In this document: positions 5,031 through 29,025 of the stretch, piece by piece
Layout of the letters: each line of letters begins with the position of its first letter
Position numbering within the stretch: position 1 is the stretch's first letter
Source of the DNA: a virus
UHGV virus genome: UHGV-0086334
Direction: 5' to 3' (one strand)
Length of the DNA stretch: 34,222 bases
Made by a program: the position numbers and the translations under genes
Notes under the pieces: generated by a model
Databases searched by the model: none
Seen by the model: the letters and a program-made list of their open reading frames with translations, nothing else
Told to the model about the DNA's origin: nothing

Positions 5031-5092
5031 TTCCGCGCAGCCGCAAAATCGGTTGCCGGGATTTGCACCCCGGATATCTAAAAGGCGACAAC

Positions 5093-5112
5093 GACGCGCC
5101 AGCGTCTTTTTT
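5093..5112 (+). terminator. Intrinsic terminator-like hairpin
   Basis: GACGC-gcca-GCGTC followed by TTTTTT, about 60 nt downstream of the promoter and before the antirepressor gene. Confidence 0.5.
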
Positions 5113-5272
5113 ATTGTCGTGCGCACAGCCACATCCGCGATTTATGGTGGGGCGTGTAGGGGAGTCGAAAGGCTCGCCGGGTCCTTTTAGCCGGTAGTGC
5201 AAACCCTGCATGTCTCACCACCCAAAGATTTGCACCTGAGGGGGGTGATTATCCGACTAAAAGGAAATCGCT

Positions 5273-6067
5273 ATGACAACTCAAGTATCCGCAGCAGCCA
5301 TCTCCCCGATTATCCACAACCAACTTCCCGTCCTCACCACCGAGTTACTCGCGAATCTCTATGGCACAGAGCCGGATTACATTCGTAAAAACCATAACCG
5401 GAACTCAGAGCGATTCGTGGTCGGGAAGCATTACTTTTTGCTCGAAGGTGAGGAGTTGCGCGAATTTAAGCACAGCATGTCTTTAAGACCTCCTGTGAAA
5501 ATCGCCAGAAATGTCCGCTCTCTCATCCTCTGGACAGAACGCGGCGCAGCTCGCCATGCCAAAATGCTGGAAACAGAACAGGCCTGGGAAGTTTTCGAAA
5601 AGCTGGAAGATTGTTATTTTAGCCAGCGTCCAGAGAGGCGGAGTACAACCACCGATGACCGTACTCCCTTACGTGATGCCGTTAATATGCTGGTCGGCAA
5701 GAAAGGCATGATGTATCCCGATGCCTACACCATGATTCACCAACGTTTCGCCGTCTCTCACATAGAACAACTGTCACAGACGCAAATGTTAGAGGCGATT
5801 GAATACATCCACTGCCTGCTGCTCGATGAAAATCAGCCAACCATTCCAGATTTTTCTTTTATCACCACTATCAAAAATGGAAAAGTGACCAGAATGCGCC
5901 ATGTTGCCAAAGGCGAACATCTGATGACCTTTGACGCTTTCAAAGAGATCGCTGAGCGGGCTGGGTATCTGGTGATCCACAGCGACAACCTGCGAAGTAT
6001 GACGTTGGATAAATTGATGCTAATGGGAAAAAAGTCGGCTGTATCTGTTGCTGACTCAGCATTTTGA
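5273..6067 (+). CDS. Antirepressor-like protein with ORF6N domain
   Basis: 264 aa; LPVLTTELLANLYGTEPDYIRKNHNRNSERFVVGKHYFLLEGEELREFK fits the ORF6N/KilA-N-type N-terminal antirepressor domain. Confidence 0.6.
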   Translation: MTTQVSAAAISPIIHNQLPVLTTELLANLYGTEPDYIRKNHNRNSERFVVGKHYFLLEGEELREFKHSMSLRPPVKIARNVRSLILWTERGAARHAKMLETEQAWEVFEKLEDCYFSQRPERRSTTTDDRTPLRDAVNMLVGKKGMMYPDAYTMIHQRFAVSHIEQLSQTQMLEAIEYIHCLLLDENQPTIPDFSFITTIKNGKVTRMRHVAKGEHLMTFDAFKEIAERAGYLVIHSDNLRSMTLDKLMLMGKKSAVSVADSAF

Positions 6068-6244: not shown

Positions 6245-7168
6245 TTATTGGTTTCTGAGGAAAGCGATTCTTGAAAGGGTCATTTGCGTCTGGCAGTCGA
6301 CCATTTTCTTGACTTCAGCATCTGTTCCCTGCATTGAAACTTTACCGCACATAGCATCCTTAGTTTTGATCCACTGACGCTGAGAAGGCAGCAACTCTTT
6401 TTTCTTCGCCGGCGTTAACCTGCCCCAGACTGTATTCAAATCAGAGTCAGCATTCGCAAATGCCATTCGGGACTGATCAAGGCTTTCAGCTTTTTGCGGC
6501 TGAAGTTGTGCCTGCCTCTCTATTTGCTTCTCCGCCTCATACTTAGCCTGTTCCTGCGCCCTGAGTTGCACCTGTTGTTCCGCTTCAATTTGGCTCTGTA
6601 GGGCATCCTTAGCCTGCTGGATTTTCTGCTGCTCAACGATCGGGTTGATAATAGAAAGTGATGTCAGTAAAGCGGCGCCCACTGATATCGGATTATCAGA
6701 AGAGGTTTTTACAAAAACGTTTTTCTGATCGTCGGTCGCCTGCACGGTGTAGGTGATACGTTTGGAAAAGGCGTTTGCGTTGTTCTCCAAAAACAGGCTT
6801 TCCATTTGCTTGTCGAGATTACGATTAAAATTCTTTCTGTAAGCATCTGAAAGCTGGACGTATTCGTTCGCAGGTAGAGTCATCGTCACGGTCCCTTCAC
6901 AAGTTTTCATTGTGCTGCCCGTGTCACTTGATGTTGTGGAGATTTCAGAGATGGCTAGTTTGATCTTGTCCAGTGTGCTTCGTTTGGTCTGATTAGTGAC
7001 ATCAGGGTATTTATCGACCTGTTCAGAGAGTCCTTCATAAACAGATTTTTTTAATAAATCCATGAGAGCTGATTGGGTCATTTCCGAAGAACAACCGATC
7101 TCATCTTTTTTGTTATCACAGCCTGTAAGGGCAATGGCGAGTAAGAGTACTGAGTATTTTAATCTCAT
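6245..7168 (-). CDS. Lipoprotein with C-terminal DUF1311/LprI-like domain
   Basis: 307 aa; signal peptide with lipobox LTGC; coiled-coil Q/E-rich middle; C-terminal SQRQWIKTKDAMC...C resembles the DUF1311 (lysozyme-inhibitor LprI) motif. Confidence 0.55.
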   Translation of the reverse strand: MRLKYSVLLLAIALTGCDNKKDEIGCSSEMTQSALMDLLKKSVYEGLSEQVDKYPDVTNQTKRSTLDKIKLAISEISTTSSDTGSTMKTCEGTVTMTLPANEYVQLSDAYRKNFNRNLDKQMESLFLENNANAFSKRITYTVQATDDQKNVFVKTSSDNPISVGAALLTSLSIINPIVEQQKIQQAKDALQSQIEAEQQVQLRAQEQAKYEAEKQIERQAQLQPQKAESLDQSRMAFANADSDLNTVWGRLTPAKKKELLPSQRQWIKTKDAMCGKVSMQGTDAEVKKMVDCQTQMTLSRIAFLRNQ

Positions 7169-7620
7169 GAATTCCCTTTAGAGTAAGGATTGGTTTTTAA
7201 GACGCGGTCTGTAATCAGTTCCGAGAGCTATAGTAAACAACGCTGAGCACTGAACGCATCACAGGCAAGGTAAAAGGTGATATCGGCAAAGGCTGTGAAA
7301 CCTTTAATTCAACAGATGGGAACGGTATGCGCAGGATCCTGTAACGACGCTCCCAAAACCGGAAACCTGTAAGGCAGGTTTTCGCTGCTGAACTTAATAT
7401 ACGAACCTGCACTTTCATGAACATATTTTATATCGTTATAGCCCTAGTGATTGCGCCCGGCAATAGATAGTGTCCTGGAGGAACTATTTCTACTGTAAAA
7501 GGTAGACATTTAATTTCAGTGTGGAATTATTCCCTGCTGTTAATAACAATGGCTGTATCTGGCACCGAGTAGGCATTGATTTTTTTAAATTCAATTGCGT
7601 TATTAATATTACTTCATTTT

Positions 7621-8181
7621 TTATTTTAAAGTACAGCCTGCCCGAAATGCACTGCTAATTTCAACATATTCCGCTCTGGCCGTACCTCTAAGTTTCTGAG
7701 ACTCACGTTCAAAACTCGCCAAATCTTCCTTACATTTTGCCGAAGTAGACTGGAATCCTTTCCCGCACATCTGAAATGTGACTGTCGGATCCGCAAATCG
7801 GGTACGCTGGGCGTAAGCCTGGCAAACAGCGGATGCCCTCGCTTGTTTTTGTCGTGGGCTTAACGGGCGTGCTGGTGTAGCCTGTTCTGCCCTCTCCATT
7901 TTCAGGCGGTAGCAGCTTAAATTACGAGAGGCGATCACCTTTTTAATAGCCTGGGCGCGGCGATAATTTTCATTAAATTCAGGATGAGATGATGGATTAA
8001 GGTTGAGCAATGGCTCTATATTATCTTCTGCCTGGCAAAGCTGTGAATCGGTGTACTGCGCAAGTTTTGCCGCCTCGATTGCAGCCGGATCTGGTTGTGA
8101 ATTTTTTGGGGTATGGCTTACACATCCGGACAGCGTAAATCCAGCGGTCAGTGCTAAGATGATTTTTGATATTCCGTTCAT
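7621..8181 (-). CDS. Lipoprotein, unknown function
   Basis: 186 aa; N-terminal MNGISKIILALTAGFTLSGC signal peptide with lipobox; several Cys. Confidence 0.5.
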   Translation of the reverse strand: MNGISKIILALTAGFTLSGCVSHTPKNSQPDPAAIEAAKLAQYTDSQLCQAEDNIEPLLNLNPSSHPEFNENYRRAQAIKKVIASRNLSCYRLKMERAEQATPARPLSPRQKQARASAVCQAYAQRTRFADPTVTFQMCGKGFQSTSAKCKEDLASFERESQKLRGTARAEYVEISSAFRAGCTLK

Positions 8182-8312: not shown

Positions 8313-9548
8313 TCAGAATTTCCGTTCTTTCCAGCGTTTAACCAACGCGGCCATGTTCAGCGGCCATAATTTAGGCTCAATCACTTTGCCTTCAAACATC
8401 GCGCCGAGCTCAATACCTGGGGCAAAATGTACGGTCATTGTTTCAGGGTTGACGGCCATCAGCTCTGCGTCTAGTAAGTCGTGTATCGTTGGAGTCAACA
8501 ACAGGCCATTATCAGCGCTAAAATTGCCTGAGGTAGCTGGCTCAATGTGCGCCGCTTGCAATCGTTCGCCGTTCTGCCAGCCAGTCACCGCGCAACGGCC
8601 AGCAAAATTATTCCATACCCATTCAACGAACTGCATATGCGCCGTCGCGTCGCGCTGCTCAACGATGCGCTGCGCGGTTCGGGTACTGTGGAGTTTGACA
8701 GGTTGGCCAAGCGCGGGCGCGGGTTTATCTTCCTCCACGACTACCACTACTTCCTGCGACATGATGATTCGATCATCGGCTACCAGTTCCGGAACAACAT
8801 CGGCCAGCTTCTCGGCTTCTCGGATGATTTGCTTTTCTTCCTGATCATCCAGGTACCGCTGCACCAGTTCAATGGTCGTGGTGGCTTCATGCTGGTGTTT
8901 GTGGATATAAAGCTCAACATCACGACGCTGGCTGGCTGGAATGTGTTTTGCCAGAAAATCCTGTAGGACGCGATTATCCAGCTTTGTCGTAACTTTTGAT
9001 GTCATGCTCACAGAATCATACCGTTTCGGTGTTTCCATCTGCGTTGATTGCAGGCCTGGTAATTCGGTGTTGATTTGAGCGGAAACCTTGCGCGGGATGA
9101 TTGTCGGCGTAAATGCTGGCGTGCTGGCCTGGGACGTGCCACGGCGACGGGCATTCTCCCAAAGGGCTTCTGTTTCAGGGTTTTTGCGTGCGCCTGGCTT
9201 TTGCATAGGCATAGTGCGAATCAGCGCTTCCCAGCCCATATTGACCTTCTGTTTGGCCTCGCGGCGTTTATCGGCCAGCGTAGGTTTTGATGGTCGTTTT
9301 TTGGAGAGCGCTTTCTCTGGTTTTAATTTGATGCCGCGCGATAAACCATTTATCAGTGTTGGATGCACTGATAAGGCTTTGGCCAATTGCAAACCGTTTA
9401 AATTGCTGCCATCTGTATAAGCGTACATAAACAAATCCGCCCAGCCATCATGTTGAGGGGTCATACCCACGCTGGTTAAGGCTGCGCGAATCTCTTTTTT
9501 GCGAGCTTTGTCCAAGTTAAATTTTGGGGTTTTATTTCGCTTAGTCAT
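8313..9548 (-). CDS. HNH-family nuclease domain protein
   Basis: 411 aa; C-terminal CAVTGW-x7-LQAAHIEP-x10-NGLLLTPTIHDLLD matches an HNH-type nuclease core; N-terminal 300 aa basic, unassigned. Confidence 0.6.
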   Translation of the reverse strand: MTKRNKTPKFNLDKARKKEIRAALTSVGMTPQHDGWADLFMYAYTDGSNLNGLQLAKALSVHPTLINGLSRGIKLKPEKALSKKRPSKPTLADKRREAKQKVNMGWEALIRTMPMQKPGARKNPETEALWENARRRGTSQASTPAFTPTIIPRKVSAQINTELPGLQSTQMETPKRYDSVSMTSKVTTKLDNRVLQDFLAKHIPASQRRDVELYIHKHQHEATTTIELVQRYLDDQEEKQIIREAEKLADVVPELVADDRIIMSQEVVVVVEEDKPAPALGQPVKLHSTRTAQRIVEQRDATAHMQFVEWVWNNFAGRCAVTGWQNGERLQAAHIEPATSGNFSADNGLLLTPTIHDLLDAELMAVNPETMTVHFAPGIELGAMFEGKVIEPKLWPLNMAALVKRWKERKF

Positions 9549-9628
9549 TTCAGTTCAGCACACTAATAATGGTAACCATGACCGCAGCAAACACGATCCC
9601 CGAAATATTCATTACTGCCATATATTGG

Positions 9629-10480
<852 letters not shown>

Positions 10481-10512
10481 TCATGTCAATTGACAACTTA
10501 TAGTTCCCACTA

Positions 10513-10606
10513 GTTAGCATTAAGATTTTTACAGTGAGGAATAATCAATGTCCGCTCCTGGCACAGAGTGGACGAACAACTGAAGACCCGCTGTGAGCGA
10601 GAAACA
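10513..10606 (+). repeat. Structured cassette-boundary repeat, copy 1 (most diverged)
   Basis: GTTAGC motif, hairpin GTCCGCT/AGTGGAC (10550..10573), then ACTGAAG and CGCTGTGAGCGAG shared with copies 2 and 3. Confidence 0.55.
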
Positions 10607-10760
10607 GACATCACAACTCACAAGGATTATACGCAGTTTGTTATCCAAACATACGGGTGCCAAGTGTTATAATCCGGCACTAACAGCATGATGCTTGGAA
10701 GTACATTTAAATGTAAAATGATAGTGTACTCTGACTGAAGCCTGGTAAAAAGGAACTGAT

Positions 10761-12140
10761 ATGTACAACAACCTCTATGCCCTCACAGAAAGCCTTTTCT
10801 GGGTTGATCGACTTTTAGATCAGGAATATGAAAATATTGGATTGAATGAATTGCTAATTGAGTTAGATGAATATAATAAAAGAATAGATTCACTGATTAT
10901 CGAGCAAGCAAATTCTGTACAGGAGTCTCGGCTAAATGTTTACATGGCGGGAAATCGTAATATTGAAAGGTATAAGAGTGGACTGTTTTCAATGGACAGA
11001 GTCATTCTTGATGATGTTCTGTATTCATTGAGCCTACGATACAGAGTGAGTCTAACAGAAAATGCATTTGAAAAAATTATTGTAAGCGATAGAAAAGAGA
11101 AGGTTGAACATCTCAGGAAGGAAATTGCTAGATTTATCAGGTTTGCTAAAGAAAACTTTGATCTTATCCGTGGTGAGTTTATCGTTTTTGTACGAAGCGA
11201 ATCTTCTATTAAAGATTCGGAGAGGGCCAATGGAATTTTAGACGATAACTCTGATGCTAATTTTATATATCGATATCTCCCTCCTAACATTGCCCGTCTT
11301 TATGAAAATAGACTATCCGTAAAGAATATAGAACGTCTAGGTAATACAAATAAAATTCGGTTATTAAACAAAAATGTTTTATCGAATGAAATTATGTTGG
11401 AAATTAAAGACTGTGAAAGTTTATATACAAATGGATATATGTATCAACATATAAAAAATGCCATTGATAATGATGATGGCTCCATATCTATGGAGCTTGT
11501 CATGGGAAATCATAGCGGAAAAAAAAGTTATGAACGGTGGGTGCAGGGAGCAAAAAACCGTACGGTTCTCTTTCATTATAAAAACCTTATTACTGACCTT
11601 AACCAAGCGCATTCATGTAGAGCATCCCTGGGTGCATATTGCCCGTTTCATGGAGAGATTCTTCGTAAACTTGATCAAAAGAATGAAGTTCAGAGGGTTA
11701 AACTCTCTATAGACGTTCCATTCTTAGAGGGACTGACTCCAAGTGAACTCTACAAAATTAGAACTGACTACGAGCCGAGTTTTAATTCTTTCCGCTCTGT
11801 ACTACGTGAAGCTGCGTATGATATAGAAGCAGAAAGTGATCCATATAAGAGACAACTAATAAATCAACATTTTGTCGAGCGGGTGTGGGATGAAGGATTG
11901 ACAGATATTGAGCAAAAAATACAAGCCTATAAGCGGAAGAGTAAAAAAGAACTTTTTCTTAACAGTGTGCCTTCATTGATAGGTTTTATTGGTGCACCAA
12001 ATCCAGTGTCGTTGGCTACAGGAGCTTTTACGATTCTAAAAGATGTCTTTAATATTACAAGCCATTCTTTAGAAATAAAGAGCCACCCTTCATATTTCCT
12101 TCTCATGATGTCAAAAGCCAAAAACAAACCTTATGACTGA
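10761..12140 (+). CDS. Hypothetical protein (459 aa), AT-rich cassette 1
   Basis: Long ORF with Lys/Asn/Ile-rich composition unlike surrounding phage genes; no motif I can assign. Confidence 0.55.
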   Translation: MYNNLYALTESLFWVDRLLDQEYENIGLNELLIELDEYNKRIDSLIIEQANSVQESRLNVYMAGNRNIERYKSGLFSMDRVILDDVLYSLSLRYRVSLTENAFEKIIVSDRKEKVEHLRKEIARFIRFAKENFDLIRGEFIVFVRSESSIKDSERANGILDDNSDANFIYRYLPPNIARLYENRLSVKNIERLGNTNKIRLLNKNVLSNEIMLEIKDCESLYTNGYMYQHIKNAIDNDDGSISMELVMGNHSGKKSYERWVQGAKNRTVLFHYKNLITDLNQAHSCRASLGAYCPFHGEILRKLDQKNEVQRVKLSIDVPFLEGLTPSELYKIRTDYEPSFNSFRSVLREAAYDIEAESDPYKRQLINQHFVERVWDEGLTDIEQKIQAYKRKSKKELFLNSVPSLIGFIGAPNPVSLATGAFTILKDVFNITSHSLEIKSHPSYFLLMMSKAKNKPYD

Positions 12141-12248
12141 GGCAGTAGAAAATAAAGTGAAAATATATTCACTTAAGAAAGATGGTTCTAAAGGGACATA
12201 ATTAGATTAACCCAGTGACCTGTTCCCCTTGAATCAACATAGGCTGTT

Positions 12249-12320
12249 GTTAGCTACTTCCGCTTCTGACACGAAGCGGACAAAAAACTGAAGGTCCGCT
12301 GTGAGCGAGGAGCGGAAGTT
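12249..12320 (+). repeat. Structured cassette-boundary repeat, copy 2
   Basis: GTTAGCTA, 8-bp-stem hairpin TCCGCTTC/GAAGCGGA (12259..12280), ACTGAAGG, second hairpin TCCGCT-gtgagcgagg-AGCGGA, ends GCGGAAGTT. Confidence 0.6.
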
Positions 12321-12463
12321 GATTTTATTGAGAGTAAAACAGATCTATAGTAAATGGTCTTGTTATGTAGGGGATTTACGATAATTTTACTACCAAGGTC
12401 GTTAAAAATTCATATGAAATATCAACGATAGTGACCTATTTTTCATAAGGCCACTATATGAAT

Positions 12464-13126
12464 CTATTGTTCTATTTTAATTTTATTTAACGTTATAGGG
12501 GCTGGGTTATAGCTAGGTATATATAATATCTCACTCCCTAGCTTGCGCTCTTTTATATTTACTTCTTTAGCGACAAGGTTACCGTCATACAACCTAATAA
12601 TCACGTAGTCTTTAGATTGATCATGAAAGTAACTAAATTCTTTTTTTAATGACGCTTGTTGTAAACCAATTAAGAAACTAAATGTCATTATGGCAATAAG
12701 GGGAAGGGTTGCAGACCAAATTAAATAACTTGGATTACGTTTATGATTTTTAACAATTTTGTATATAATATAAGTAACTGTTGCTATCGATAAACTTAAA
12801 ACGAAAAAACCACCATATTCAGTCTTATGTCTATAAGACTGAACAATAAAAACAATCATGATAAAAACTGTAACTGCAGTAACTTTAACTGCTTTTACTT
12901 TACTTTCAGGCCATGGAGTAAAAAACATCAACATAACACAAATTATATTAAAAAATAAATATGACATACCCACGAATAAAAATTTAGAATCTAACGTTAT
13001 AAACTCCATAGGATAATCAAAATGATATGCATAGCCATATTCAAATGAAATTGCAGACATATAAGATAGAACAGTTATTGCCAATATTAGCAAGGCTTCC
13101 TTGCTTTTTATAAAGTCAATTATCAT
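12464..13126 (-). CDS. Integral membrane protein (220 aa), AT-rich cassette 2
   Basis: Several hydrophobic helices in N-terminal 150 aa followed by a soluble C-terminal domain. Confidence 0.55.
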   Translation of the reverse strand: MIIDFIKSKEALLILAITVLSYMSAISFEYGYAYHFDYPMEFITLDSKFLFVGMSYLFFNIICVMLMFFTPWPESKVKAVKVTAVTVFIMIVFIVQSYRHKTEYGGFFVLSLSIATVTYIIYKIVKNHKRNPSYLIWSATLPLIAIMTFSFLIGLQQASLKKEFSYFHDQSKDYVIIRLYDGNLVAKEVNIKERKLGSEILYIPSYNPAPITLNKIKIEQ

Positions 13127-13441
13127 GATGTTTGTTTTTTAATGAATAAAATAATCACTTACCAGACAGTTAATCTTCTTAATTGTCATTGTGTTAAGTG
13201 AACCCCGAATTTTTCTCAGTTCTTCTGAAGAAGTCCTCACGTATATGATAACAACCAAAAAAATTTTTTTCACTAATTATACTAAAATCCATGAAGAATC
13301 AGCAGTGTGAAGCAGGGAGAATCTCTAACAAGAGACGCCGTCATTTTGTAAATTTCCCGGCAAACCAGATCATCTGCTTTTAGACATAGGATTCAATGTG
13401 CTATTACGGCGAGCTGTTCCCACAGATTGATGGAGATAGAT

Positions 13442-13519
13442 GTTAGCAATGCCCGCTTTTGGTACGAAGCGGGCAAGCTAACTGAGTTGAAATTTCGCTG
13501 TGAGCGAGGAGCGGAAGTT
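13442..13519 (+). repeat. Structured cassette-boundary repeat, copy 3
   Basis: GTTAGCAA, hairpin GCCCGCTT/AAGCGGGC (13451..13474), ACTGAG, TCGCTGTGAGCGAGGAGCGGAAGTT nearly identical to copy 2. Confidence 0.6.
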
Positions 13520-13604
13520 CGTAATTGTTCTCGCAGCTAGGGTAGCTAAAAGACACGGCAGGCAAATGTCTACATGTAGGATACACTTGCTATTATCAAG
13601 AATT

Positions 13605-14384
13605 TTAGTCCTGAAGCATTTTAACTTTCTTCTCATGTTTTTTATATTCGCCATTTATCCATTCAGGTTCTTCCCGAATAGCTGAGCGCATACAGTATGT
13701 TGGGATATCATTCCAGAAAGCTGTAATCGCATCTGCAAACTCTATAAACTGTGTTTCTGTAACCTCAAGTTGCTCATGACGTAGACTAAATCTGTAGCCT
13801 CTTGGAATATTGATATCCTGATAATACTCAGGATGCGCGACGGAAAGCACCCGATGGGCATGGCCATCACCGTGCTTATAAACATTAACCACTTGGCGAC
13901 AGGCATCGATTTTTTCGTAATAAGCCTTGCTGGTGATATCCATCCCAATCCATTCTAGAATTTCAATTAGCCTTGGGAAGCTAATGTCCCAGATCATCGA
14001 TGTTACGGATTTAGCGTCGAGCCAATGGCTGAATTCTCTGATACACTTCTCTCTAAGTTCCTTGTCGAACTGATGAAACATTCCTGCTGTCAGAGCAAGT
14101 GAAACCGTATTTTTCATATCACTGAGAGCAATCCAATGTGAAATTCCTTCATCATGAGCCTGTTCACAGATAGCCCCTTCGTCGTCATAATCGGGGTCAA
14201 AACGCTTACCGGCGGCCTCATAGTAATCTTGTTCTCTCTGCCTGGCTTCAGCTTCAAGATCAGAATCGCTAAACTGCGAAAATAGACGCTTTCTGGCTTC
14301 AGCAACATAAAAATTGTGTTTGTCGAGGAAGTAAGACCGATCAATGGTTGCAAAATAAAAAAGTGAAAAATCTTTGTTGCTCAT
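13605..14384 (-). CDS. Hypothetical protein (259 aa), AT-rich cassette 3
   Basis: ORF track; acidic, no recognisable motif. Confidence 0.5.
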   Translation of the reverse strand: MSNKDFSLFYFATIDRSYFLDKHNFYVAEARKRLFSQFSDSDLEAEARQREQDYYEAAGKRFDPDYDDEGAICEQAHDEGISHWIALSDMKNTVSLALTAGMFHQFDKELREKCIREFSHWLDAKSVTSMIWDISFPRLIEILEWIGMDITSKAYYEKIDACRQVVNVYKHGDGHAHRVLSVAHPEYYQDINIPRGYRFSLRHEQLEVTETQFIEFADAITAFWNDIPTYCMRSAIREEPEWINGEYKKHEKKVKMLQD

Positions 14385-14798
14385 GGGGATCTCCCTCGTT
14401 TTGTCAGTTGTACAAGCCCCTGGAAGTAGGCTACTAATAAAGAAAAAATTACCTTTGAATAACTGTGCAAGATAGCAGTACGCCTAAAAGTAGTGCAAGT
14501 ATCCCAACCAGGATAACGATGCGTTTTCAAATATCTGACTTAACGCTTGCGATATCCGCTCTGGCAACAAAGTGGACTGTCAGATTAAATTTGTCTTCAC
14601 GCCATAGATGTGTCAGCTCATATCTTATCTAATACACACAACATTCTCTCATTCTTAGAGAATTAATCTTTTAAGGGTAGGTGTTGACGTTAGAACAAAA
14701 GAATAGATATTTTTGAAGCATATAATATGAGCTATAACCATAGGACGCATATAAAAGCTTACGGTGTGGTCTTATAATTTGGCACAAATGATTTACTA

Positions 14799-14826
14799 AC
14801 CCGCTTCGGCGGGTCTTCTTTTTTAT
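14799..14826 (+). terminator. Intrinsic terminator
   Basis: CCCGC-ttcg-GCGGG followed by TCTTCTTTTTTAT. Confidence 0.55.
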
Positions 14827-14830
14827 AGAC

Positions 14831-14843
14831 TTCACGATGTGAA
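14831..14843. promoter_or_regulatory. Palindromic operator-like site TTCACGATGTGAA
   Basis: Near-perfect palindrome about 50 bp upstream of ORF 14894; a second copy lies upstream of the next ORF. Confidence 0.35.
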
Positions 14844-14893
14844 AACGAATAATAAATTGTGCAAATAATGCAGTTTTATTATTCGAGGTAATT

Positions 14894-15535
14894 ATGAAAA
14901 CCCTCTATGAGGACTGGCCTGAAACTTTCGTTAGCCGATTAGATATGTTACGAGCTCTGGATGATCGCGGCTCGACCCGGAGGCTCTATCTTGAGCGGAC
15001 CGGGGCAATATTTGACGCTCTGGCAGAAGAGATACGTACAGCCGTTACCAGGCATCCTGAAATCGACGCGAGTGAACTTGATATCGGGCCGCTGTATCGC
15101 TATTACAAACGTGGAGAAAAGGGGAATCCGCTGGCTGACTTACTTATTGAGTTGGCTCCACCAACTTGTGAACGGGTTCGTATATCTCCTGAAGTGTACA
15201 CAATCCCGTATCTGTTTTTTGCACTGTTGATAGCGCAAGGCGCTGACAACGATGCCCGCGATTTTTTCAATATGATGATGCGACCGTTAATCATCGCCTA
15301 CCGTTTCAAACAACTGGCGCGTTACCTTGGCACTAAGGGCGGAGGACGACCACAGCACAGATTAAAAAGCGAAGCCATTGAACTGGCTGATCGTTTTTTT
15401 ACTGAAAACCCGACAGCGCCATTATCGCGTGGTGTGCAATACATATCCGGTATTTTTGTGGCGAAATACTCTGACCCACCTGCAGCGTCGACGATTAGAA
15501 AATGGTTAATTTCAATTTACAGGAGTGATAAATAA
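14894..15535 (+). CDS. Hypothetical protein (213 aa)
   Basis: ORF track; stop followed by inverted repeat AAACGGTTT/AAACCGTTT (15544..15572). Confidence 0.5.
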   Translation: MKTLYEDWPETFVSRLDMLRALDDRGSTRRLYLERTGAIFDALAEEIRTAVTRHPEIDASELDIGPLYRYYKRGEKGNPLADLLIELAPPTCERVRISPEVYTIPYLFFALLIAQGADNDARDFFNMMMRPLIIAYRFKQLARYLGTKGGGRPQHRLKSEAIELADRFFTENPTAPLSRGVQYISGIFVAKYSDPPAASTIRKWLISIYRSDK

Positions 15536-27274: not shown

Positions 27275-29025
27275 AACTGGCACCGAACGTAAAACAGCAG
27301 TCACGCGGCATAAAACACAAAGGAACAGAAGTAATTATTTTTGCGGGTAGTGATGCCTGGGCACACGCGAAACAATGGCAGGAACATGATGCGCGTATGG
27401 CCGGAGATAATGAGCCTCCTGTGTGGCTTGGGGAGCAGCAGCTATCCGAACTGGATAATCTGCAAATTGTGCCGGAAGGCCGAAAATCAGCACGCATATA
27501 CAGGGCCGGATATCTTGCGCCTGTAATGATAAAGGCGATTGGTCAGAAGCTGGCGGCAGCAGGCGTACAGGATGCAAATTTTTATCCTGAGGGTATGCAC
27601 GGCCAGGAGGTGCAGAACTGGCGCGAATATCTGGCCCGTGAACGCCAGAATCTTTCTGATGGTCTGGTCATTGAGCTTCCGGTAAAGCAAAAGGCGCAAC
27701 TTTCGCAGATGGCGGACAGTGAGCGCGCGCAGTTGCTTGCCGATCGCTTTGATGGCGTTTGCGTACATCCTGAAAGTGAAATCGTTCACGTATGGCGCGG
27801 CGGGGTATGGTGTCCGGTCAGCACAATGGAACTTAGCCGCGAAATGGTGGCGATCTATTCAGAGCACAGGGCCACTTTCAGCAAGCGCGTAATCAATAAC
27901 GCCGTGGAAGCGTTAAAAGTTATTGCCGAACCAATGGGCGAGCCGTCTGGCGATTTGCTGCCGTTCGCCAATGGTGCGCTTGACCTGAAAACGGGGGAAT
28001 TTTCCCCGCACACGCCGGAGAACTGGATCACCACGCACAACGGCATTGAGTACACGCCACCAGCACCAGGGGAGAACATCCGCGATAACGCGCCAAACTT
28101 TCATAAATGGCTTGAGCACGCAGCCGGAAAAGACCCGCGCAAGATGATGCGTATATGTGCCGCGCTGTACATGATTATGGCGAACCGGTACGACTGGCAG
28201 ATGTTTATTGAGGCCACCGGAGACGGCGGGAGCGGTAAAAGTACATTCACACACATAGCCAGCCTTCTGGCAGGGAAACAGAACACGGTAAGCGCTGAAA
28301 TGACATCGCTTGATGATGCTGGTGGACGTGCGCAGGTTGTCGGGAGTCGTCTTATCGTCCTGGCTGACCAGCCGAAATATACAGGCGAAGGAACGGGCAT
28401 CAAGAAAATCACAGGCGGCGACCCCGTGGAAATTAACCCGAAATATGAAAAGCGTTTCACGGCGGTAATCAGGGCGGTGGTGCTGGCGACCAACAACAAC
28501 CCGATGATATTCACCGAACGGGCCGGAGGTGTGGCACGTCGTCGCGTGATTTTCCGTTTCGACAATATCGTCAGTGAGGCCGAAAAAGACAGGGAGCTAC
28601 CGGAAAAGATTGCGGCTGAAATCCCCGTTATTATCCGCCGATTGCTGGCGAACTTTACCGACCCTGAGAAGGCACGGGCTTTACTACTGGAACAGCGTGA
28701 CGGTGATGAAGCACTGGCAATAAAGCAACAGACGGATCCGGTTATTGAGTTTTGCCAGTTCCTGAATTTTCTGGAGGAAGCGCGCGGCCTGATGATGGGT
28801 GGCGGTGGTGATTCAGTGAAGTACACGACCAGGAACAGCCTTTACCGCGTCTATCTGGCGTTTATGGCATACGCGGGCAGGAGCAAACCGCTAAACGTGG
28901 CTGAGTTCAGCAAGGCCATGAAGCCAGCGGCGAAAGTTTACGGGCATGAATATATTACGCGAAAAGTTAAGGGAGTAACGCAGACCAACGCAATTACAAC
29001 AGACGATTGCGACGCGTTTTTATAA
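27271..29025 (+). CDS. Primase-helicase (P4 alpha / PICI Pri-Rep-like), SF3 helicase domain
   Basis: 584 aa; Walker A GDGGSGKSTF, RLIVLADQ Walker B-like, D5-type C-terminal region; followed by iterons. Confidence 0.85.
   Translation: MKLAPNVKQQSRGIKHKGTEVIIFAGSDAWAHAKQWQEHDARMAGDNEPPVWLGEQQLSELDNLQIVPEGRKSARIYRAGYLAPVMIKAIGQKLAAAGVQDANFYPEGMHGQEVQNWREYLARERQNLSDGLVIELPVKQKAQLSQMADSERAQLLADRFDGVCVHPESEIVHVWRGGVWCPVSTMELSREMVAIYSEHRATFSKRVINNAVEALKVIAEPMGEPSGDLLPFANGALDLKTGEFSPHTPENWITTHNGIEYTPPAPGENIRDNAPNFHKWLEHAAGKDPRKMMRICAALYMIMANRYDWQMFIEATGDGGSGKSTFTHIASLLAGKQNTVSAEMTSLDDAGGRAQVVGSRLIVLADQPKYTGEGTGIKKITGGDPVEINPKYEKRFTAVIRAVVLATNNNPMIFTERAGGVARRRVIFRFDNIVSEAEKDRELPEKIAAEIPVIIRRLLANFTDPEKARALLLEQRDGDEALAIKQQTDPVIEFCQFLNFLEEARGLMMGGGGDSVKYTTRNSLYRVYLAFMAYAGRSKPLNVAEFSKAMKPAAKVYGHEYITRKVKGVTQTNAITTDDCDAFL

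Follow-up and report, generated by a model that had tools for sequence, protein, structure and literature searches.

A two-module palindromic repeat and its possible role as a joint between accessory-gene cassettes in Enterobacterales

The virus genome UHGV-0086334 (34,222 nucleotides, read as one strand and hereafter called the window) carries an array of a roughly 75-bp repeat, the element considered here, which may mark the joints between exchangeable gene cassettes. A lambdoid prophage matching the region at 99.7-99.8% identity lies in Escherichia coli E24377A, SE11 and four other complete genomes. The RefSeq gene order of that prophage runs from repressor/cro, the replication genes, an ORF6N-domain gene and an LprI-family gene, through 'hypothetical' genes that include an HNH protein and a LEM-3-like GIY-YIG protein, to DUF1367, DUF1364, antiterminator Q, the lysis genes and terminase, which places the array in the early-right region, upstream of Q. 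A first-pass annotation of the window, made from the letters alone, had described an AT-rich island holding three open reading frames (ORFs) for proteins of 459, 220 and 259 amino acids (aa), each preceded by a co-oriented copy of one structured repeat, and had proposed that the copies delimit exchangeable cassettes. The three ORFs have the sizes and strands given there, the guanine-plus-cytosine (GC) content drops to 0.29-0.39 over 10.5-13.5 kb, most of the prophage being at about 0.5, and all three co-oriented copies (c1, c2 and c3) are recovered by a covariance model of the family (Table 1). Both c2 and c3 entered the training set of this model through locus L001, which is the same prophage in another strain; c1 is absent from it, and its score is therefore independent. 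The third copy in order of score, c1 is complete rather than truncated, its final arm GGAGCGGAC having become GAAACAGAC through three G>A changes. Beyond these three full copies, the array includes two half copies, c0 and c4, and it therefore bounds six genes and not three, encoding from left to right the 186-aa, HNH, GIY-YIG, 459-aa, 220-aa and 259-aa proteins.

Table 1. Copies of the element and the genes between them, in window coordinates
Feature	Coordinates	Strand	Remarks
c0, degenerate L-half (AACAATGGCTGTATCTGGCACCGAGTAGGCATTG)	7545..7576	+	left boundary of the variable region; weak covariance-model match 7538-7603, 13.9 bits
186-aa ORF	7621..8181	-	cargo between c0 and c1
411-aa HNH endonuclease-domain protein	8313..9548	-	cargo between c0 and c1
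GIY-YIG nuclease (predicted PD-T4-3)	9629..10480	-	cargo immediately left of c1
c1, full element, R 3' arm mutated (GAAACAGAC)	10541..10610	+	covariance-model E=1.4e-10 (10537-10614)
459-aa ORF	10761..12140	+	Enterobacterales-only family
c2, full element, with the 459-aa and 220-aa genes converging on it	12248..12320	+	covariance-model E=1.9e-18 (12245-12322)
220-aa predicted multi-pass membrane protein	12464..13126	-	
c3, full element, L hairpin lengthened by GTTAGC and GCTAAC	13441..13520	+	covariance-model E=7.6e-22 (13438-13521)
259-aa protein, HEPN-like helical fold	13605..14384	-	
c4, L-half (ATCCGCT-CTGGCAACA-AGTGGAC)	14553..14578	+	right boundary of the array; weak match 14541-14599

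Alignment of 53 copies, drawn from many genera, yields the consensus CAACGTCCGCTTCTGGCACGnAGCGGACAAnnTnACTGAGCTGAAGGTCCGCTGTGAGCGAGGAGCGGACGTT, in which the full element resolves into two palindromic modules, L and R, both built on a single 7-mer: GTCCGCT and its complement AGCGGAC occur twice each, in alternation. The L module reads AAC-GTCCGCT-tcTGGCACg-AGCGGAC, with an 8-nt centre containing TGGCAC, and the R module reads GTCCGCT-GTGAGCGAGG-AGCGGAC-GTT, with a 10-nt centre, each being a pair of inverted 7-bp arms around its centre (7-8-7 and 7-10-7). A spacer of about 18 nt (..ACTGAGcTGAAG) separates the two modules and accompanies R, and the outermost bases form a 10-bp terminal inverted repeat (AACGTCCGCT/AGCGGACGTT), which in some copies is drawn out to GTTAGCAAyGTCCGCT. 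The GTTAGC that had been described beside the hairpin of every window copy is an extension of this outer inverted repeat, and the description holds except for c1, where 30 nt separate GTTAGC from the hairpin downstream of it. An unusual variant occurs in Erwinia sp. S63 (locus L034, ~2570-2625), in which at least five tandem GGCGGCT units stand before an R-half in place of the L module.

It had also been proposed that the first hairpin keeps its structure while its sequence changes. Within the window this is the case for all three copies, among which c3 has a single compensatory pair and c1 a single G-T wobble, and stable folds are predicted for both strands of c2 and c3 (z -4.3 to -6.4) but not for those of c1 (z -1.6 and -1.9). 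The pattern does not extend to the family: under the two-hairpin fold, 83.8% of the cells in the 53-member alignment are paired, compared with 83.1% in shuffled alignments, 46 of the 500 shuffles do at least as well and no covariation is seen, and an alternative fold (1:4 plus 2:3 pairing) likewise gives no signal above the shuffles. These null results take away the argument from compensatory change, and a selected RNA or DNA fold is not supported across the family. Conservation instead resides in the loops rather than the stems; among 83 copies not chosen by search pattern, the module centres are best conserved (TGGCAC at 95-98%, GAGCGA at 92-98%), the arms less so and the spacer least. With conserved centres and no covariation, recognition of sequence, or matched regions of crossover, therefore fits the element better than a plain hairpin does, and in geometry and conserved centres the modules resemble, by analogy, recombinase core sites. 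The mismatches of the L hairpin, 27 G-U against 9 A-C on the + strand, give a modest hint that this strand folds. Two other readings were tried and ruled out, namely an intrinsic terminator, as the hairpins are followed by AAgcTAACTGAG and GTTnn with no T-run, and a sigma-54 promoter in the TGGCAC loop, where the -12 position holds GGAC and not TTGC.

That the copies delimit exchangeable cassettes is borne out by two related prophages with different cargo at the same element-bounded site. The prophage of locus L020 has its backbone in common with the window on both sides (left, 9567-10611 at 97%; right, 14555-14909 at 88%), and holds at that site PD-T4-3 together with four co-oriented elements enclosing three different ORFs. 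In the prophage of E. coli EC958, also with a common backbone, a single annotated 232-aa gene lies between a full element at the position orthologous to c0 (L091, 5299-5377) and an L-half at that of c4. Cassettes of the window are also found alone elsewhere, with homology ending inside elements. The 459-aa gene recurs in O157:H7 at 91% identity, preceded by a degenerate element and followed by an L-half, and the 259-aa gene recurs in strain ST540, where homology runs from inside c3 to inside c4 and an R-half and a further element flank the copy. The GIY-YIG gene region and its copies in other strains remain homologous as far as window 10565, which falls in the L-hairpin loop of c1, and most of 432 records, ST131-type prophages included, begin to match at window 14555, inside c4, at 95-99% identity. 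In four-way alignments both boundaries are hybrid, c1 being L020-like through GCGAG and then like the O157 459-aa cassette from ACAT, and c4 being ST540-like through ..ATCCGCT and EC958/O157-like from GGACTGTCAGAT.., so that both joints fall within a module. Over all loci, 84 of 376 internal alignment ends (22%) lie within 15 bp of an element, a territory of 2.0% of the bases, which is about 11 times the expectation, though a share inflated by the choice of loci for containing the element and located with the imprecision of BLAST ends inside conserved sequence. These breakpoints are concentrated in the L loop and on its 3' side, where the spacer passes into R, and at either outer edge.

The organisation of the window recurs across the family. 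A scan with a profile hidden Markov model found at least two copies within 8-14 kb in 41 of 73 non-redundant loci, with a median interval of 1284 bp. Co-orientation irrespective of gene direction, as had been noted in the window, holds for 73 of the 74 neighbouring pairs (p=8e-21) and for all 27 pairs of strong matches. A single ORF occupies 40 of 72 intervals, co-oriented with the element in 20 and opposite to it in 20, and two ORFs occupy a further 17. The half copies are polar, with R-halves first rather than last in an array in 9 cases against 4 and L-halves last rather than first in 23 against 4 (Fisher p=0.0011), and the commonest arrays have the form FL, FFL or FFFL (F, full element; L, L-half); 'first' and 'last' are provisional positions, the loci having been cut at about 8 kb. 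A model of attL, attP and attR sites sharing a core within the spacer was considered and rejected, as L-halves mostly stop after the hairpin and R-halves retain the spacer; a spacer-like ACTGGCGTAAAG follows the L-half in loci L089 and L099 only.

An R-half is present even in phage lambda, in the b region at 27318-27360 (L003, 2991-3033), between attP and ea59. Its left flank (CATACCTT..CCATAACTG) is the same as that of the R-halves which open the arrays of two unrelated E. coli prophage remnants (L099, 3137-3178; L089, 4979-5019), so that conservation extends to the joint where the backbone gives way to the first cassette. The array of one of these, in E. coli 19SZHZ663Rt (L099, 1-2693), has reverse-transcriptase and tyrosine recombinase genes on one side and the pinE invertase with tail-fibre genes on the other; remnants of pin-type recombinases are also found near the arrays of L089 and L090. 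In strain ZJ3920 (L090, ~6960-7010), the PD-T4-3 cassette sits in an island beside ssrA, and its L-half is followed by a sequence resembling a tRNA/tmRNA 3' end (..GGAGGTTCAAATCCTCTCGTGCCGACCA), which is probably the attachment-site repeat of the island.

Searched by blastn with c2, 927 of 5426 complete E. coli genomes contain related copies, at a median of one place and a maximum of four, and 83% have none at this sensitivity. These copies sit in prophages, islands and plasmids, all of them intergenic among the matches listed, and the element mostly stands 3' of a co-oriented gene or between convergent genes. In a collection with one genome per species, an exact 20-mer of the R module was found at 64 loci, about 57 of them in Enterobacterales species, including members of Erwinia, Pantoea, Klebsiella, Citrobacter, Rahnella, Serratia, Kluyvera and Raoultella as well as Salmonella diarizonae, with matches outside the order probably due to chance in GC-rich genomes. 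The consensus occurs on 894 of 72,556 plasmids (Klebsiella 382, Enterobacter 216, Pantoea 116), with up to seven copies per plasmid. Among viruses, a 21-mer of the R module (the 20-mer plus one further 5' C) was found in 19 IMG/VR contigs, and a consensus search of a phage collection returned four records only. In the P2-like phage 899 a full copy, with an unnamed gene on either side, sits between tail-fibre assembly and tail sheath (G-FI, Z/fun).

The proteins flanking the element are as diverse as its hosts, 138 of them falling into 105 clusters. On chromosomes and plasmids the neighbours include LysR, MFS, glyoxalase, GNAT, AraC, SDR, AKR, LysE and UmuDC proteins. In phages and islands they include the known defence proteins PifA, PD-T4-3, GajA/AriA/Old-like ATPases, AbiH and AbiTii, as well as a RES-domain NADase and a 1589-aa helicase encoded between two elements; at one locus Hachiman, likewise known from defence, lies beside an FRG-domain gene at tRNA-Thr. 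A specific tie to phages or to defence, as the first-pass annotation had suggested, is thus not upheld, with the element also standing between LysR-, MFS-, SDR- and GNAT-type genes on the chromosomes and plasmids of many genera.

From these comparative breakpoints we infer that recombination takes place at the element, and we lean, somewhat past an even judgement, towards the element being a DNA-level joint between adjacent accessory-gene cassettes. The full repeat would be a joint formed by two adjacent cassettes, with L closing the first and the spacer plus R opening the second, and crossovers within the modules, chiefly in or beside the L centre and in the R module, would allow cassettes to be gained, lost and replaced. 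A backbone with a single L site, receiving circular or donor cassettes that carry an L-R joint, would yield arrays of full elements closed by an L-half, and a co-oriented array would build up as full element, cargo, full element, cargo, L-half. Each cargo gene is proposed to carry its own promoter, and its orientation would be free for that reason. Catalysis could be due, about equally, to a trans-acting site- or structure-specific enzyme or to homologous or short-homology recombination of the RecA or phage Red/RecET type, in which the conserved 25-75 bp would serve as portable homology. With no enzyme linked to the element and joints at several positions, short-homology recombination is about as likely as a dedicated enzyme.

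Several observations weigh against the element as a cassette joint, besides the limits already attached to the breakpoint share and to array position. The breakpoints are spread and do not fall at the single position expected of a strict site-specific system. When the 528 ORFs of the 73 loci were clustered and the recurrent clusters annotated, the only recurrent neighbour families were LysR (the commonest, at 12 loci), LysE, SDR, AraC, UmuDC, AKR, MFS, kinase and phosphoesterase, with no recombinase or transposase family recurring near the element. Neither an excision product or circle nor an enzyme was found. The orientation of the element shows no bias with local GC skew (29 versus 34), which is a weak argument against a single-strand, replication-coupled mechanism. 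Finally, the 459-aa protein has homologs in Yersinia, Morganella and Cronobacter whose genes lie in hotspots without the element, and the element is therefore not needed for a cassette to reside there.

A bolder form of the cassette-joint reading, which we put forward as a tentative and rather doubtful possibility, is that the element is the site of an unrecognised gene-cassette system of Enterobacterales, with an integron-like outcome, a two-module site of its own and a trans-acting enzyme. It would bring single-gene cassettes together, a good many of which carry anti-phage genes, and rearrange them among prophages, plasmids and genomic islands.

The strongest competing explanation, in our estimate unlikely, is that the element is a palindrome akin to repetitive extragenic palindromes (REPs) and bacterial interspersed mosaic elements (BIMEs, or REPINs), or to miniature inverted-repeat transposable elements (MITEs), which spreads selfishly or stabilises or insulates transcript 3' ends, the breakpoints being a by-product of the short sequence that the loci share and not its function. 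Its intergenic location with a preference for gene 3' ends and convergent pairs, its two short imperfect palindromes, the stable predicted folds of c2 and c3 on either strand and the excess of G-U over A-C mismatches would all be in keeping with such a palindrome, as would the range of its neighbours, from ordinary metabolism and regulation to defence, and the lack of a linked recombinase. The terminal inverted repeats AACGTCCGCT...AGCGGACGTT are likewise what a MITE would have. REP elements, however, number in the hundreds and occupy the core genome, whereas the element is unrelated to them in sequence, has a median of one place per genome and is confined to accessory DNA, a restriction that a REP-like palindrome leaves unexplained, and it coincides with breaks in synteny. 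Strict co-orientation is unexpected of a two-way palindromic terminator or stabiliser, as are loops more conserved than stems, and the T-run of a terminator is missing. No Y1 transposase of the REP-associated (RAYT) kind is encoded among the neighbouring genes of the loci, and the consensus has no GTAG motif. Neither a target-site duplication nor a pair of filled and empty sites differing by the element alone was noticed among the compared loci, in which no systematic empty-site search was made; the differences seen there instead consist of whole cassettes, polar half elements and hybrid joints.

A structured RNA (small RNA, riboregulator or processing site) that controls the adjoining cassette is improbable. 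The stable predicted folds agree with it, the G-U excess is compatible with an RNA from the + strand, and the R loop contains a Shine-Dalgarno-like GAGGAG, yet neither pairing shows covariation, and Rfam gives nothing at the gathering score and only chance-level matches at E-values up to 5. In addition, the orientation of the adjoining gene and its distance from the element vary, half elements occur alone, and no conserved promoter or terminator accompanies the element.

Integron attC sites share several features with the element. Clusters of attC sites that lack an integrase (CALINs) are also co-oriented arrays of 60-140-bp imperfect palindromes, separated mostly by single-gene cassettes of unrelated function, and different cargo likewise occupies the same platform. 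Each attC site also has two pairs of inverted 7-bp boxes, and the two 'simple sites' of inverted 7-mers in the element resemble the layout of the attC 59-base element, down to a consensus with ..AAC and GTT.. at its ends. That the arrays are themselves CALINs served by a distant IntI-type integrase is nonetheless very improbable, since the 7-mers are GTCCGCT/AGCGGAC and not RYYYAAC/GTTRRRY, with only the flanking AAC and GTT triplets alike, the element conserves sequence (its centres most) without structural covariation, which is the reverse of attC, its cargo is random in orientation (20:20), its half sites are polar and stand at array ends, its hosts are Enterobacterales chromosomes, plasmids and prophages, and no intI, attI or common promoter is present in any of the 73 loci or beside the window array.

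Arrays of cassettes delimited by short recombination-type sites are already known, and two other systems invite comparison. The promoter-stem-loop repeats (PeSL) of T4-type phages and the 'boundary sequences' of lambdoid phages are short conserved intergenic edges of exchangeable phage genes, for which a role as portable homology in recombination has been proposed. The element differs from them in not being a promoter plus terminator, in its two-module palindromic anatomy and half-site polarity, and in extending beyond one phage group to the plasmids and chromosomes of many genera. The pdif modules of Acinetobacter plasmids are small accessory modules bounded by XerC/XerD sites, with no linked recombinase. 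Their sites are similarly short and of recombinase type, with inverted arms around a central region, but the element bears no resemblance to the dif/cer consensus and its copies are co-oriented rather than alternating.

Defence hotspots of P2-type phages also carry variable anti-phage cargo at fixed positions of temperate phages (PMC9122126), and the copy in phage 899 and a homolog of the 459-aa protein between gpA and portal genes place the present system in similar surroundings. Such hotspots are defined by their conserved flanking genes, and the pathway of exchange within them is still to be found (Rousset et al., 2022; PMC9122126). The first-pass annotation had taken repeat-delimited cassettes as the usual organisation of defence hotspots; no paper describing such a repeat was found, and neither Rousset et al. 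(2022; PMC9122126) nor the P2/P4 hotspot papers mention one. Literature searches by sequence string and by topic, which did not cover the study of P2-like variable regions by Nilsson et al. (2004; Mol Biol Evol 21:1), likewise returned no description, and we found no prior account of this element.

The gene at the left of c1 bears out the expected defence setting. The GIY-YIG protein matches the PADLOC profile PD-T4-3 with E=6.9e-138 over profile positions 1-254 of 256, in addition to Pfam LEM-3_GIY-YIG (7.3e-13, 49.2 bits against a cut-off of 27), and by these profile matches it is the predicted PD-T4-3 anti-phage nuclease. Its HNH neighbour matches Pfam HNH_2 (2.6e-8) and phrog_23050 (1.9e-221), and the 186-aa ORF has no Pfam, PADLOC or PHROG match. 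The 220-aa protein reaches Pfam 7TMR-DISM_7TM at a sub-threshold 19.7 bits only (cut-off 29), with no PADLOC or PHROG match. The 259-aa protein belongs to phrog_19541, a family spread across Gamma- and Betaproteobacteria for which a sequence search of solved structures gave no match. Its helical fold is HEPN-like, in agreement with the HEPN four-helix fold, and it is a candidate RNase effector. Its family has the invariant block N166-V-Y-K-H170-G, and in the consensus ..CRLVVNVYKHG.. an arginine stands 7 residues before the histidine, to be compared with R-x(4-6)-H in the HEPN motif; this arginine lies outside the listed invariant columns. The window array is situated in a prophage defence hotspot, with PD-T4-3, a HEPN-like protein and unassigned genes.

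For the 459-aa family, no match was found in Pfam, PADLOC, PHROG or PDB, the structural model is poor, and the fold search gave no informative result. In O157:H7 the gene adjoins a type I restriction system within which DarTG is embedded. A homolog in a P2-like prophage of Morganella lies in the gpA-portal hotspot, next to a gene for a 534-aa Ser/Thr kinase (L095, 4001-7033), and the Yersinia homolog lies in an integrase/AbiJ island, where a 363-aa gene ends 13 bp upstream (L093, 2896-5365). Together with the PD-T4-3 hotspot of the window, these contexts may point to a function in defence.

Other parts of the prophage also merit note. To the right of c4 (window 14580-14890; L091, 7030-9250) lies a second variable spot, before a conserved 213-aa gene, at which ST131-type prophages such as that of EC958 are about 1.9 kb longer than the window and carry genes for an ImmA/IrrE peptidase and for 201-aa and 77-aa proteins. 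A terminator-like hairpin with a T-run (AACCCGCTTCGGCGGGTCTTCTTTTTT) is located at window 14800-14826, just upstream of the 213-aa gene, and is unlike the repeat modules, which are free of T-runs. At the other end, an isrK Hfq-binding RNA (5037-5112; Rfam, 76 bits) and a C4 antisense RNA (5140-5225; 74 bits) lie directly upstream of the ORF6N-domain gene (5273-6067), and the set looks like an antisense-controlled antirepressor module of P1/P7 type within a lambdoid prophage.

How the content of defence hotspots and small accessory islets is exchanged is an open question, and a sequence that marks the joints gives a testable handle on it. The element could be used to delimit cassettes computationally and so to single out candidates for defence by one gene, the 459-aa, 220-aa and 259-aa proteins of the window among them. 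If it is merely a REP-like palindrome, it would still be a useful marker of recently acquired DNA, if a far less surprising one; if an enzyme acts on it, that enzyme would be a recombination system not recognised before, and in the best-studied bacterial group.

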